Source of the DNA: a virus
Lineage: Duplodnaviria > Caudoviricetes
Reading direction: 5' to 3' (one strand)
DNA length: 49,127 bases
IMG/VR virus record: IMGVR_UViG_3300032335_000765
Coordinates: 1-49,127 of that record
Each line of letters begins with the position of its first letter. Position 1 is the stretch's first letter. Below the pieces are notes generated by a model. That model was not told the DNA's origin and made no database searches. It saw only the letters and a program-made list of their open reading frames with translations. A program made the position numbers and the translations under genes. Positions 1-49,127 of this stretch are shown here, one piece after another.

Positions 1-52
1 GAACCAGTGTTTCTGCGGTTCCCGATATCCACGCCCGCCGTCGTGATAACGC
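1..52 (-). other. attI-like integron recombination site (continues from 49121-49127)
   Basis: (ACA)GAAC-CAGTG-TTTCTGC = R box, 5-bp spacer, inverted L box; further GTT-core repeats TCGTGATAACGC (41-52) and TCGTGAGAACGC (113-124). Confidence 0.5.
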
Positions 53-156: not shown

Positions 157-558
157 ATGGCGATCACGTTCAGCGTTCCCGGCGATCCCGTGCCCCAGCC
201 ACGAGCCCGCGTCTCGACCGTAGGCGGATTCGGCCGAGCGTATGTGCCGAAGACGCACGCGGTTCACGCGTACCGCAGGGCGGTCGCCCAGGCCGCGAAG
301 GCCACAGGATGCGAGCCGCACGGTGAGCCAGTCAATGTCGTGATCGACTTTGTGTTCGCTCGCCCGAAGTCGCACCTTCGCAAGAGCGGGCTGCGGGCAG
401 GAGCCCCCGTGCTGCCGCGAGCCGATCTCGACAACTGTGCCAAGGGAGTTCTCGATTCGCTGAACGGCGTCGCGTGGCACGACGATTCGCAAGTCTCTCG
501 GTTGGTGCTGGAGAAGAGCTACGGAACGGAGGGCCGCACGACCGTGCGGATTTCGTGA
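157..558 (+). CDS. rusA: RusA-family Holliday junction resolvase
   Basis: VPGDPVPQPRAR N-terminus, DLDNCAKGVLDSLNGVAWHDDSQV catalytic motif. Confidence 0.9.
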   Translation: MAITFSVPGDPVPQPRARVSTVGGFGRAYVPKTHAVHAYRRAVAQAAKATGCEPHGEPVNVVIDFVFARPKSHLRKSGLRAGAPVLPRADLDNCAKGVLDSLNGVAWHDDSQVSRLVLEKSYGTEGRTTVRIS

Positions 559-34538: not shown

Positions 34539-35657
34539 CTACGCCGCAGGCTCGGCTGGCGGCTCTTCCTGCCCCGCCGCCCAGCCGCCCACGAGCCCCT
34601 GACGGTAGTGGCCGACCATTTCGACCGGCACGCCCGCCCCCGCCGCCAGAGCGTCTATAGAAGCCCGTGCCGGGCAGGGCTCCCCTCGGGCTGCGAGATC
34701 CCGGCCCGCCAGCCGACCAGCCCGCAGGGCGGATTCTCGTGCGTCTGCCACGGGATCGGGCGGCTCCTGTCCGAGATCTAGGTGCGGCAGCATATCGAGG
34801 TGGCTGCGGGTCGGTTTCGCGATGGTCTGATCCACGTAGTGCTGCTGGGTTGTGGTGGCACTTGCGTGCCCTAGGGCGGCGGCGGCTTCAGAGAGCCCGC
34901 CAGCGGCCGCGATGTAGGAGGCGGCAGCACGCCGCAGCCCGTGGTATCCGCGAGGTTGCACCCCCGCCCGCTTGCAGATCCCACGCAGATGCCCCCAGAG
35001 ATGCGTGGGCGTGCGATCCCAACGCCAGACGAGCCGTCGCTCGCCAGCATCCCGGCGAAGTTGCGATAGCCAGCCAGCGGTGATCGCCGAGATCGGCCGT
35101 AGGAGGTCTTGGTGGCTTCCTTTCCGGTTCTCGGCCCGCAAGAGAATCGTCCGCTCGGGCAGATCAACGTCGCGCCACTCGACCGAGAGCAACGCCCCCA
35201 CCCGCTCGGCGGTCTCGAACGCGGCCCGCACAAGCGAGGCGTGCCAGATCGACGCCGGGCGGCCGTCGATGCCGCCGTGGGTGGCGAGGCAGGCCCGCAG
35301 GATGGCGGCGACCTCATGATCCCGGTATGCCCGAGGCACTCGGCGTGGAGCTCGCATCGGCGGCAGCACAGCGGCCGGGGCAACCTCAACGCGCCGCAAC
35401 CGAAAAAGGTGATTCCACAATGCCGCTAGGTGGGTGCGATCCTTGAGCGCAGTGGCGACCGAGACCTTTGCCTTCCTCGCGGAGAGAAACCGCTGGACGG
35501 CGATCCCGGTCAGGTCGGCGACGGTCGGCTCGTGGCCCAGGTGCTCGGCGAACCTCTGGAGGGACAGCCGGAACTGGGTGAGGGCTTTGGGCTTCAGCCC
35601 TCGCAGGGGTGCGTAGTCTGCGTCGAGGATCGAGCGGAGCGTTTCGGGATCGTGCAT
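34539..35657 (-). CDS. int: Tyrosine recombinase (phage integrase)
   Basis: ETAER (R), RKG (K), HGLRR, LGH, HY catalytic residues; SAM-like N-domain. Confidence 0.92.
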   Translation of the reverse strand: MHDPETLRSILDADYAPLRGLKPKALTQFRLSLQRFAEHLGHEPTVADLTGIAVQRFLSARKAKVSVATALKDRTHLAALWNHLFRLRRVEVAPAAVLPPMRAPRRVPRAYRDHEVAAILRACLATHGGIDGRPASIWHASLVRAAFETAERVGALLSVEWRDVDLPERTILLRAENRKGSHQDLLRPISAITAGWLSQLRRDAGERRLVWRWDRTPTHLWGHLRGICKRAGVQPRGYHGLRRAAASYIAAAGGLSEAAAALGHASATTTQQHYVDQTIAKPTRSHLDMLPHLDLGQEPPDPVADARESALRAGRLAGRDLAARGEPCPARASIDALAAGAGVPVEMVGHYRQGLVGGWAAGQEEPPAEPAA

Positions 35658-36116: not shown

Positions 36117-36164
36117 CGTTTTCCCCGGTGGAAACGCGGCACCAGAATCTTTTCCCTACACCCC

Positions 36165-36193
36165 TTGAAGCCCAACTACCGATAGGCTACACT
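36165..36193 (+). promoter_or_regulatory. Early promoter with AACTACCGATAG operator
   Basis: TTGAAG-17-TACACT. Confidence 0.75.
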
Positions 36194-36246
36194 ACAGGGG
36201 ACGCGGGCAAGTGAGACCCGCATGACGCCAGCCGGGAAATGAAACC

Positions 36247-37392: not shown

Positions 37393-37447
37393 GCGTTTCG
37401 CGTTTTCCCCCGCGAAAACGACCCCAAAAAAATCTTTGCTCATCCCT

Positions 37448-37476
37448 TTGACGCCCAACTACCGATAGCCTATAGT
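37448..37476 (+). promoter_or_regulatory. Early promoter with AACTACCGATAG operator
   Basis: TTGACG-17-TATAGT with upstream A-tract. Confidence 0.8.
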
Positions 37477-37533
37477 ACCCCCAGACGCGAGCGAATGAGA
37501 CTCGCGGGGACAAACGCAAGGGAGACCGAAGCC

Positions 37534-40007: not shown

Positions 40008-40916
40008 ATGGTTCAGATCAGAAAAGCCCGCCGCTCGGCAACGAAACTGCGGCTCTTGCTCACCGGCCCGAGCGGTGCGGGCAAGACGTTCGGAGCCTTG
40101 CTCGTGGCGAAGGGGCTCGGCTCCCAGCGGACGATCGTCATCGACACCGAGCAGGGTTCGAGCGATCTCTACGACCGGCTGCACGACTTCGATGTGATCG
40201 ATGTCGCCCCGCCGTTTACGCCCGAGGCGTACATCGAGGCGATCGACGCGGCCGAAGCGGCCGGTGCCGACTGCATCGTGATCGACTCGATCAGTCACGA
40301 GTGGAATGGGAAGGGAGGCTGCTTGGAACTCGTGGATGAGATCGCGAGGGCGAAGTTCAAGGGCAACACATGGAGTGCCTGGAGCGAGCTCACCCCGCGT
40401 CACCGAGCGTTCATCGACCGGATGCTCCGCAGTTCGGCCCACATCATCGCGACGGGCCGGGCGAAAACCGAGACGGCGCAGATCGATGACCACGGGCGGA
40501 AGAAGGTGGTCAGGCTCGGCATGAAACTCGAAAGCCGCGACGGTGCCGAGTATGAGTTCACGACCGTTCTCGACATCGTTCACGACGGGCACTTCGCGGT
40601 CGCTAGCAAGGATCGCACCGGCATTTTCGGGGGCGATCCCAAGCCGATCGGCGTCGAGACCGGAAAGGCTTTCGCCGAGTGGCTCGCGGGCGGCACGCCG
40701 ACCGTGACGCCGCCGAGCGAGAAGTTTCTCCAGGCGGGCGACTACATCGCCAAGGCGGCGACCGACGCGGATCTCCGCAAGGCGACCCGAGCGATCGACG
40801 GGTACGTGGTCGCCGGGCAGTTGACCAGCGATGAGTGGTCGCGTCTCACCGACGCGATCACCGAGCGGCTGGCCGCGATCGAGACCACGGCGGGCGAGCC
40901 CGCTGCGACTGAGTGA
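40008..40916 (+). CDS. AAA_24/Sak4-like ATPase (ssDNA-annealing recombinase)
   Basis: GPSGAGKT, IDTE, IVIDSISHEW, EYEF, KDRT. Confidence 0.85.
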   Translation: MVQIRKARRSATKLRLLLTGPSGAGKTFGALLVAKGLGSQRTIVIDTEQGSSDLYDRLHDFDVIDVAPPFTPEAYIEAIDAAEAAGADCIVIDSISHEWNGKGGCLELVDEIARAKFKGNTWSAWSELTPRHRAFIDRMLRSSAHIIATGRAKTETAQIDDHGRKKVVRLGMKLESRDGAEYEFTTVLDIVHDGHFAVASKDRTGIFGGDPKPIGVETGKAFAEWLAGGTPTVTPPSEKFLQAGDYIAKAATDADLRKATRAIDGYVVAGQLTSDEWSRLTDAITERLAAIETTAGEPAATE

Positions 40917-47007: not shown

Positions 47008-47207
47008 CGATCGAACAACTCACGCTTGTGTGCGTGGGCGTGTTGGTGAATGGATTGACCTTTGCCCTCGGGCTTCTCTCGGGGGCTTCCCTGCGACGAA
47101 AGGATTCGACAAATGACCGCGACCGCAACCAAGCCCGCCAAGCCTCGCAAGACCCGAACTGGTGGCATCGCCCTCAACGCCGCGACGCTCGCCCGAGCGA
47201 TTCGTGA
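47004..47207 (+). CDS. Small membrane protein
   Basis: N-terminal TM; tail overlaps dnaN. Confidence 0.5.
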   Translation: MTIEQLTLVCVGVLVNGLTFALGLLSGASLRRKDSTNDRDRNQARQASQDPNWWHRPQRRDARPSDS

Positions 47208-48294
47208 AGTTGAGCCAGCGGTGCCCAGCCGCAGCCCGAAGCCGGTGCTCCAGAATGTGCTGCTCGCCGATGGGCACCTGACCGGCACCGACCTCGAACT
47301 GCGGATCTCGGTGCCGCTGCCCGAGGCGACCGGCCCGGCGATGCTCCTGCCGTTCGCCCGGCTGAAGGCGATCGTCTCGACCCTGCACCCGACCGACGCG
47401 GTGACGATCACCGCCGACGGCACGAAGTGCAAGATCGAAGCTCGCGGCGGCGAGTGGACGATCCCCGTGGAGGATGCCGCCGAGTTCCCGGCCGCGACGG
47501 CGACCAGCGGCACGAGCATCGGTCGGCTCCCAGCGGATCAGTTGGTGAGCCTCGTGAATGCGGTGCGGTTCTCGACCGACACCGAGAGCAGCCGCTACGC
47601 CCTCGGGGCGGTGTGCGTGGAGTTCCAGCGGGGCGCGGCGGATTCCGAGACCGGGCTGATCTCGTTCGTCGCGACTGACGGGCGGCGAATGAGCGTGGCG
47701 GCTGCCGAGGTCGCGAGTCAGGATCTCGACAACTCGCAGACGCTGGTGCCGTCGCGGGCGATCGCCGCCCTGGTGCGGCTCGCGGGCGGGGGCGAGGCGG
47801 TGCAGATGCTCGCGACCGACACCGAGTTCGTCGCGATCGTCGGCACGTATGACGAGGAGACGGGCGTGACGGGCACGACGCTCCATGCCCGGCTGACCGA
47901 GGGCCGGTTCCCCCGGTGGCGTGACGTTGACCAGAAGCACGAGGTGCCCGCGAGCACGGCGGTGATCGGCGATCTTCTCCATGCGATCCGCATGGCGGAA
48001 ATCTGCACGAGCGAGAACAGCAAGAGCGTGACGCTGACGGTGACGCCCGACGGCATCGACCTCACGGCTCAAGCCGCCGAGGCTGGGCAGGCGCAGGTTC
48101 ACTGCGATCTCGTGACGGCGGGGCAGCCGGTGACAGTCAGGATCGACCCGCGATTCGCGTCGCAGTGGCTGGCGTGCGGTTCGTTCGACATGGCCGAGGC
48201 GGTGCGGCTGGAAGCCGTCGATGCTCAGTCGGCGGTGGTGCTGCGGTGCGGCGACCATTGCCGCACGATCATCATGCCGATGGCGGATGAGTGA
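47113..48294 (+). CDS. dnaN: DNA polymerase III beta sliding clamp
   Basis: KPVLQNV, GTDLE, SRYALG, VATDGRRM, EGRFP, IIMPM. Confidence 0.9.
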   Translation: MTATATKPAKPRKTRTGGIALNAATLARAIREVEPAVPSRSPKPVLQNVLLADGHLTGTDLELRISVPLPEATGPAMLLPFARLKAIVSTLHPTDAVTITADGTKCKIEARGGEWTIPVEDAAEFPAATATSGTSIGRLPADQLVSLVNAVRFSTDTESSRYALGAVCVEFQRGAADSETGLISFVATDGRRMSVAAAEVASQDLDNSQTLVPSRAIAALVRLAGGGEAVQMLATDTEFVAIVGTYDEETGVTGTTLHARLTEGRFPRWRDVDQKHEVPASTAVIGDLLHAIRMAEICTSENSKSVTLTVTPDGIDLTAQAAEAGQAQVHCDLVTAGQPVTVRIDPRFASQWLACGSFDMAEAVRLEAVDAQSAVVLRCGDHCRTIIMPMADE

Positions 48295-48363
48295 CCCCGT
48301 GCCGGGCGGCTGGCGGGGGGTGCCCGCCAGCCTGCCCCGGCTCATCCCGAGAGGAGGAACGAG

Positions 48364-48684
48364 ATGGATCTCGCCCGACTGATTGCGTTGTGGGAAGACC
48401 GCACGCTCCGCACCGATGAAGTTGCGGAGCAACTGGGGTGCTCGCTTCAGATGCTCTACAAGCTCGCCGCCAGGCACGGGCTCGGTCGCCGAAAGGGGCC
48501 GCGCAAGAAGCAGCGGTCGAGGGACGATGGCACCGAGATTACGTGGCGTGACCCGACGCCCGATGAGATCGAGCGGCTGAAGGAAGAGTTGTGGCAGCGG
48601 AAGCTCGCCAAGCTGCGGGTCGAGACCCCTCAAGAGACTGCCGATCGTGTGCTGCGAGAGTTCGGGGAGGTCTACGCAGGCTGA
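48364..48684 (+). CDS. HTH-containing hypothetical protein
   Basis: DEVAEQLGCSLQMLYKLA; GGAGG RBS. Confidence 0.7.
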   Translation: MDLARLIALWEDRTLRTDEVAEQLGCSLQMLYKLAARHGLGRRKGPRKKQRSRDDGTEITWRDPTPDEIERLKEELWQRKLAKLRVETPQETADRVLREFGEVYAG

Positions 48685-48830
48685 TGGCTGCGCCGCTGAT
48701 CGCACTCACCGGGATCATCTACGCGGGCGTCTGCCTCGATCTCGCAATGCGGGGACGGTATGACCTCGCGATCGCCTACGCGGGCTACGCGTTCGCGAAT
48801 GTCGGGCTGTACTACGCGGCGAGAACTTGA
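48684..48830 (+). CDS. 48-aa membrane protein
   Basis: LIALTGIIY...YAGYAFANVGL; TGATG coupling. Confidence 0.7.
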   Translation: MAAPLIALTGIIYAGVCLDLAMRGRYDLAIAYAGYAFANVGLYYAART

Positions 48831-48857
48831 CCAGTAGGTGAATGATGAACGGGTCAG

Positions 48858-48906
48858 TGAGAACGCCAGCGATCAGCGGCTCGTCCGCTGCATCGCGTGG
48901 TTCTGT
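48858..48906 (-). other. Integron attC-like site
   Basis: Minus strand: ACAGAAC-CACGC-GATGCAGC-GGACGAGCC-GCTGATC-GCTGGC-GTTCTCA = R''-5-L''(8)-loop-L'(7)-6-R' with one extrahelical base. Confidence 0.7.
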
Positions 48907-48929
48907 GGGTTTAGCAACCGGAGAAAGTG

Positions 48930-49118
48930 ATGGCGAAACTCATCATCGAACGCAACGACAAAGGCGTTTACTGGTACTACGAGTCCGACCGGCAGCACCG
49001 CGTCTGCGAACCGCAGCGGAAAGCCGAAGGGCTGCGGCGAGTCGATTGGAACGATCTGGCCGACGAGTGCGAGATTCAGTCAGGCACCTACATGGTGGTG
49101 CCGATTGTTGAGGTGTAA
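48930..49118 (+). CDS. 62-aa hypothetical protein carried as a putative gene cassette
   Basis: GGAGA RBS; bounded by GTTCTGTGG and CCACAGAAC. Confidence 0.65.
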   Translation: MAKLIIERNDKGVYWYYESDRQHRVCEPQRKAEGLRRVDWNDLADECEIQSGTYMVVPIVEV

Positions 49119-49127
49119 CCACAGAAC

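Follow-up and report, generated by a model that had tools for sequence, protein, structure and literature searches.

The window, meaning the whole stretch of DNA analysed here (49,127 nt), is a complete 49-kb genome of a tailed, temperate phage with annotated terminase, portal, capsid and tail genes; its IMG/VR record is classed as linear, without end repeats, and has 100% completeness. On the plus strand, genes for a methyltransferase, a helicase, replication proteins and a clamp follow one another up to position 49127, and the series resumes at 157 with a gene for a RusA-like resolvase. Between a conserved 48-aa ORF and RusA, across the two ends of the record, lies a slot holding an attC-type hairpin, one small gene and an attI-like sequence (Table 1). 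No intI gene was found in the window and nothing in it matched Rfam. Elsewhere, two intergenic 35-bp repeats (36161-36195 and 37444-37478, 86% alike) precede the methyltransferase gene and the next gene, and look like promoters or operators.

Table 1. Features of the cassette slot and its surroundings, and phage cassettes with modification genes (positions in the window unless another contig is named)
Feature	Position	Strand	Remarks
attI-like site	1..50	-	AAC core 2-4, 5-nt spacer, L-like box 10-16
attI-like direct repeats GATA(T/A)C	24-29 and 45-50	-	21 bp apart, conserved in alignment
RusA-like Holliday junction resolvase	157..558	+	phrog_140, E 5.5e-31; downstream bound of cassette slot
Tyrosine recombinase	34539..35657	-	PF00589 match
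Sak4-like annealing protein	40008-40916		E 3.8e-10
DNA polymerase sliding clamp	47062-48294		phrog_947
Conserved 48-aa phage ORF	48684..48830	+	Upstream bound of cassette slot
Fixed left flank of array	48831..48863	+	Common to L197, where other cassettes sit behind it
attC site, 49 bp	48858..48906	-	Classical top strand is minus; plus (coding) strand is bottom strand
attC R'	48864-48858	-	GTTCTCA; 5-nt and 6-nt spacers between box pairs
attC L'	48877-48871	-	GCTGATC, then spacer GCTGGC
attC L''	48894-48887	-	GATGCAGC, unpaired base 48891, then 9-nt loop
attC R''	48906-48900	-	ACAGAAC, then spacer CACGC
Gene cassette, 263 bp	48864..49126	-	attC core and one gene; ends complementary over 9 bases
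Cassette ORF, 62 aa	48930..49118	+	GGAG at 48920-48923
Cassette start and R box of hybrid attI	49119..49127	-	GAAC at 49124-49127 coincides with 1-4
Phage cassettes with PAPS-reductase-like, Mom-like and DNA methyltransferase genes	L289:192-1064, L042:3925-4794, L229:2875-3306		
Same modification-gene cassette group, continued	L300:4106-5077, L313:147-551, L318:614-1261		

Read on the minus strand, the attC site has R'' and R' boxes with AAC and GTT, L boxes at spacings of 5 and 6 nt, an extrahelical base at the fourth position of L'' and a hairpin fold. An earlier note, made from the letters alone, had described these boxes and spacings, the 49-bp length and the unpaired base, and all were found where it had placed them. 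None of 200 shuffles folded as stably as the minus strand (z -3.57), and 2 of 200 did so for the plus strand (z -3.07). A strict box-geometry detector, whose motifs were taken from the same site family so that motif bias is possible, found one site in the window and none in 30 shuffles; no second attC was found in the window. A second extrahelical T six pairs from the first is absent, the stem ending in a 5-nt loop without further bulge. Crossover is predicted at G|TT, between 48864 and 48863. At 49 bp the site falls below the 57-141 bp range in Nivina 2016 (PMC5027507), and sites of 49-50 bp account for 62 of 357 viral and 3 of 232 host sites of the family. The extrahelical base of the bottom strand is C in 346/357 viral and 222/232 host sites, whereas it is usually G according to Nivina 2016 (PMC5027507). 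The GAAC core, which the note had taken for a departure from the usual TAAC, is in fact the usual form in this family (304/357 viral, 160/232 host sites). The site had no match among 50,697 GenBank phages.

One gene is bracketed by 48900-48908 and 49119-49127, which complement each other exactly, as had also been observed earlier. The ORF of this gene, which probably starts at the ATG at 48930, runs antisense to integron polarity and in the direction of the phage operon. Its 62-aa product has seven homologues of 76-90% identity (of six aligned, five are 62 aa and one is 63 aa long) and matched no family in PHROG, NCBIfam or Pfam; the ESM Atlas held nothing at 0.9 or above, the best score of 0.81 being at chance level. 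The window's cassette recurs at internal array positions in six other contigs (L409-L414), where it is followed by attC and not by attI, and RusA of three of these phages is just 65-68% identical to that of the window. In L412 the hairpin that precedes the gene belongs to the same short type; L409-L411 have a truncated one, and L413 and L414 one of a different type. Exchange or decay of hairpins therefore also takes other routes. Truncated attC sites were seen at L197:160-200, L409:2950-3000 and L410:2950-3000; such truncation would fix the adjacent gene in place as a permanent phage gene. The fixed left flank of the array may be either the distal half of the initial docking site or the remaining end of a cassette since lost.

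On the RusA side the slot ends in a sequence of a different kind. No hairpin was found in positions 1-110, which fold no better than shuffles; an R box and a degenerate L box lie 5 bp apart and are accompanied by two upstream direct repeats. This layout of core, L-like box and repeats 21 bp apart is that described for attI1 (PMC8946536), and the point of cassette insertion is predicted between 49126 and 49127. On the side that in the window faces RusA, viral arrays close with a conserved sequence that forms no hairpin, and the consensus of 67 such ends is close to the window's positions 1-30. In host loci, intI is co-oriented with the attC sites and a related sequence shortly past the 3' end of intI closes the array. 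At three host loci (L138, L183 and L187) the arrays lie 5' of intI or on both sides of it, the inverted arrangement not being universal there.

The likeness to host sites holds in both directions. Scored with a matrix built from 9 host sites beside intI, the window's site came top among 1181 AAC positions. A matrix built from 65 viral ends was applied to the 26 host loci with enough DNA past intI, and placed its best site 42-340 nt past the 3' end of intI with a score above 10 in 12 of them, or in 14 when two weak sites are counted; 14 of the 26 had no strong match at the expected place. The best single host match to the attI-like site, at 37 of 49 bases, lies beside an intact intI in a planctomycetotal locus (L195), compared with a background of mean 14.8 and sd 3.1 over 23,349 positions. 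The sequence is thus homologous to a site beside intI, which bears out its earlier description as attI-like. A decayed attC at the window start was ruled out, as the sequence does not fold and matches host attI.

Both exact arms of the attC site were found together in 48 IMG/VR stretches, mostly as arrays in the same orientation with a spacing of a few hundred bases; the densest viral array has up to about 14 sites in 6 kb. A second attC pattern with a long loop occurs in at least 128 IMG/VR stretches. In GTDB the right arm was found in 102 stretches, most of the 80 matches listed being Planctomycetota; further contigs with the arm carry labels such as Cyanobium and Betaproteobacteria. The sites bound mobile cassettes with complementary ends: among cassettes of 100-2000 nt, counted with no filter on their ends, all four bases after GTT complement the four before the next AAC in 77/100 viral and 104/160 host cassettes, compared with 18/100 and 15/160 for the flanks of one and the same site. 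Such complementary ends are the mark of cassettes that were once circular. Phage cassettes have a median length of 282 nt, host cassettes of 579 nt.

Polarity and gene direction were analysed in cassettes of 100-1500 nt with at least 3/4 end matches. For cassettes shared between arrays, it was the hairpin preceding the gene that varied less, in 7/8, 10/12 and 18/23 viral clusters at identity thresholds of 90%, 80% and 70%, respectively, and in 7/8, 15/16 and 15/17 host clusters; between 1/8 and 5/23 of the viral clusters went against the rule. The better conservation of the upstream hairpin is what the 5/6 spacing and the bulge predict, and it identifies the minus strand as the top strand and 48864-49126 as the cassette.

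By this polarity, 120 of 183 viral clusters carry their gene reversed, 3 in the classical direction, 40 in both and 20 in neither; the corresponding numbers for 118 host clusters are 14, 42, 7 and 55. The antisense direction that the note had read from the window's single gene is therefore common to viral cassettes at large (120 against 3), and in 182 of the 183 viral clusters a stop codon lies just before the closing AAC. The three viral ORFs counted as classical look like shadow frames. Reversed genes as a trait of the whole planctomycete integron were ruled out, since host cassettes are mostly classical; three short contigs binned as host that hold reversed cassettes (L071, L090 and L112) may be phage DNA placed in the wrong bin. 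A weak scan for sigma-70-like sites, in which planctomycete promoters are poorly covered, found none in 1-300 or 48250-49127, and a terminator scan of the slot region found nothing.

The cargo of the two pools is different as well. Of the 42 host classical ORFs, 18 matched Pfam and 9 encode toxin-antitoxin or Fic proteins. Viral cassettes mostly encode small uncharacterised proteins (median 85 aa, 67 families among 120), with DUF551, DNA methyltransferases, Mom-like and PAPS-reductase-like proteins among the remainder; the PHROG search covered 43 of 76 cassette proteins. Judged by sequence, the cassettes with PAPS-reductase-like, Mom-like and methyltransferase genes (Table 1) would form a swappable DNA-modification kit; the cargo pool is phage-specific and likely serves counter-defence and host takeover. 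The largest group of cassette proteins (24 of 120; L348:1566-1979 and 23 related) shares a short C-terminal motif and matched no Pfam or PHROG family; the same motif is fused to DUF551 in L314.

One host integron with an intact intI (L078) has a reversed DUF551 cassette of the phage type in first position, beside attI, and the end of this cassette resembles those of many phage cassettes. This points to one enzyme serving both phage and host. That the contig is itself a phage with its own intI was ruled out, the neighbouring genes looking like housekeeping genes when their translations were read. A further contig, labelled Cyanobium, carries a reversed phage-type cassette of the window's attC family beside an attC of a different type (L079:891-1281), and two IntI genes lie elsewhere in its genome; such cassettes may pass between phyla, unless the contig is misbinned.

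Variation at the crossover was found in run X1, possibly the run from which the window came. A contig of depth 48.7 stops precisely at 49127, and contigs with a summed depth of 36 begin 30 bases before this position and continue on; another contig starts exactly at position 1 and is entered by contigs of 56 bp (depth 25.3) and 708 bp (depth 12.7), the paths having been identified from lengths, depths and branch point. The length of the shorter bridge, 56 = 26 + 30, had been predicted beforehand for a direct join of the two ends with a 4-base overlap. About two thirds of the population would thus have the direct join and about one third at least 678 extra bases. From its length and branch point, we infer that the longer path contains one or more extra cassettes; it may stem from a co-occurring strain and not from a fresh insertion. 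Depth rises to 60 in short contigs over the attC core, from 49-50 on both flanks, as would be expected if the minor form had a further attC copy. Two places of substitution in all were found over 47800-49127 (1.3 kb).

Relatives of the phage show the same kind of variation between the same flanks. In L197, with RusA 96% and clamp 97% identical to those of the window, a single contig spans the join and contains two cassettes other than the window's, the hairpin of one being truncated. Further relatives in X2 and X4, whose contigs were paired between analyses by length and depth, have other inserts between attC and attI (426 nt in X4, 219 nt in the window), and the contigs from L197, X2 and X4 all run from attC through attI to RusA. 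Both the different neighbours and the graph branch were seen at AA|C beside the attI-like site. The join across the record ends, which the earlier note had assumed, is accordingly backed by the X1 bridge, as judged by its length, and by the spanning contig of L197; the variable content that it expected at the break, and the different genes that it expected in related phages, were both observed. An empty, cassette-free site was seen neither in the contig matches of X1, X2 and X4 nor in the slots of relatives. More distant relatives lack att sites and have a protease-like gene in the same slot, which suggests that the platform itself is a module gained or lost; platform and protease gene are alternatives there. 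The protease gene lies between the 48-aa ORF and RusA (L198:5190-6000, also L199-L204 and L206), looks secreted and is presumably trypsin-like, going by motifs.

IntI was searched for with TIGR02249 in chosen loci, 49 of 64 phage and 50 of 99 host (L049, L225 and L232 stand outside the genome searches). No match over the cut-off was found in 48 array-bearing phage records, 11 of them near-complete, whereas 26 of 50 genomes chosen for the attC arm had one. As for the host, the clamp of the window was most similar to that of a planctomycete (39%, compared with 25-29%, among 5 genomes), another planctomycete of the same 5 giving a partial clamp match only. Among 301 genomes from the order to which G069 belongs, no close prophage was found, the best integrase identity being 41%. 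The homology of attI and attC and this small clamp comparison make a planctomycete the likely host.

Taken together, we consider it probable, with roughly three chances in four, that the phage carries an integron platform without integrase, and that its cassettes are moved in trans by IntI from the host, likely a planctomycete; the note, too, had proposed a host IntI. The attI-like site, placed where a run of phage genes ends downstream, would serve as docking site, with one attC-bounded cassette currently in place. IntI is known to exchange one strand, at AAC, between double-stranded attI and the folded bottom strand of attC (Nivina 2016, PMC5027507). During lysogeny or infection, the host IntI would bind the phage attI in double-stranded form and the incoming attC as a folded plus (bottom) strand; exchange at AA|C would set the new cassette next to attI with a hairpin in front of its own gene. 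Cassettes would be added at the operon-distal end, where read-through from the upstream phage operon would read the reversed genes. Because these genes are antisense to integron polarity, operon read-through would suffice and an integron promoter would not be needed.

Other explanations fit parts of this evidence. The sites could derive from an integron while cassettes now move mainly by homologous recombination between hairpins, helped by an annealing protein and independent of IntI. In its favour, hairpins are repeated almost unchanged both inside one phage and from phage to phage, a Sak4-like annealing protein is encoded in the window, and L413 and L414 have a different hairpin ahead of the window's gene. 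Homologous recombination would not keep cassette ends complementary, however, and leaves unexplained both the conserved non-repeat attI-like end and a branch exactly at AA|C; we regard it as unlikely, with perhaps the best standing among the competitors of host IntI. Slightly less probable still is a relic, in which part of a host integron was taken up a single time and the present differences are old differences between strains without current recombination. The truncated attC halves in L197, L409 and L410, the related phages without the module and the minor form of X1, which could be a second strain, would all agree with a relic. It accounts poorly for a population with two places of substitution over 1.3 kb yet two forms at the crossover, for a cassette pool that is phage-specific and reversed, unlike host cassettes, for a phage-type cassette standing first in the intact integron of L078, and for the conservation of the attI repeats.

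The earlier statement that the phage has no IntI stands, there being no match to the IntI model, although the note had overlooked the tyrosine recombinase at 34539-35657. Shuffling driven by this enzyme is improbable. A PF00589 match was obtained in the window and in 34 of 40 picked array-bearing records (19 of the 20 near-complete ones), but the window's enzyme has no TIGR02249 match, shares 24% identity with IntI with gaps over the IntI-specific insertion, and is encoded 13 kb from the array. A tyrosine recombinase was also present in 13 of 14 near-complete RusA relatives, and the attC pattern in just 1 of these 14; the 32 relatives picked had been chosen mostly for having no array near RusA, and the pattern missed a known site in G434. 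Conversely, G037, a genome complete with terminal repeats, has attC and the attI-like end and no PF00589 match. By its sequence the enzyme is likely a prophage integrase, neither an IntI nor part of the platform. Least probable, and for the most part refuted, is that the attI-like junction arose as an artefact from joining unrelated contig ends on a 4-base overlap. The record's linear class without end repeats would allow it, but the 56-bp bridge in X1, the contigs of L197, X2 and X4 that span attC, attI and RusA, and the dozens of arrays ending in the same type of junction all argue against it.

The favoured reading, host IntI acting on a phage platform, can be set against known systems. Clusters of attC sites (CALINs) and integrons in phage genomes were reported, together with IntI1 activity, by Qi 2023 (PMC9892861), where TJE1_attC1, of about 50 bp as read from its primer row, was recombined by IntI1. 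Those phage CALINs and the window share attC sites and small cassettes without intI, and DNA methyltransferase cargo occurs in both groups. A CALIN as defined there requires at least two attC sites and no intI; the window has one, many of its relatives fit the definition and the minor form in X1 perhaps does. An attI is given in that paper for Shewanella prophage M16-3 alone, beside a complete integron, and illegitimate capture is suggested; the sections covered here describe no phage attI without intI, no reversed pool, no variation at the crossover within a population and no family-wide system, and the term "Planctomyc" does not occur in the covered supplement. A complete integron would differ from the window by having intI; in addition, the weak scan found no Pc-like promoter on the attI side, and the cassette genes face attI.

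Sedentary chromosomal integrons with an inverted integrase are known from Planctomycetota (Cury 2016, PMC4889954; Ghaly 2021, PMC8352920). The phage arrays share with them the attC family and the sequence at the attI position, and differ in the lack of intI, the opposite gene direction, shorter cassettes and a phage-like cargo in place of toxin-antitoxin genes. With classical attC and attI1 sites (PMC5027507, PMC8946536) the window has in common the R and L boxes, the unpaired central spacer and the extrahelical L'' base, and, with attI1 (PMC8946536), the AAC exchange site, R, L and two direct repeats; it departs from classical attC in its length of 49 bp and its one extrahelical base, a bottom-strand C. 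Its genes face away from classical attI-driven reading, an orientation described as unexpressed from Pc (PMC5027507, PMC8946536). IntI can also place cassettes outside integrons at attG (bioRxiv 10.1101/2022.09.11.507474), and by analogy an off-target insertion of this type could seed single cassettes in phages; the target in the window is a conserved, reused attI homologue with repeats, in contrast to the short genomic consensus of attG.

Clusters of attC in phages were hence already known. We found no published phage attI without intI and no reversed phage cassette pool, in a coverage outside which most subscription papers and bioRxiv supplements lie, and the attI homology and the reversed pool appear new to that extent. 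Further contributions of the window are that the crossover branches inside a single population, that the attI match between phage and host holds in both directions, and that a host integron contains a cassette of the phage type. From the reversed pool it follows that models of cassette origin must allow for a gene on either strand.

A wider interpretation, to which we give somewhat less than an even chance, is that the members of a widespread group of freshwater planctomycete phages parasitise the host integron, using a copy of its attI, the host IntI and a reverse-polarity cassette pool of their own, with gene direction acting as a filter. It is speculative that reversal silences host cassettes in the phage and phage cassettes in the host. 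If true, host cassettes, which are rich in toxin-antitoxin genes and elsewhere include anti-phage genes (integrons have been described as stores of such genes, bioRxiv 10.1101/2024.07.02.601686), would enter the phage in antisense and stay silent; host integrons would in turn store phage cassettes in silent form, for later phages to retrieve, and run X1 would show integron parasitism caught in the act. A one-cassette platform measures about 350 bp, and a matching host IntI is known. A phage that keeps the docking site and borrows the integrase would have turned a bacterial tool to its own use, and the integron platform would give phages a defined, site-specific route to mosaicism.
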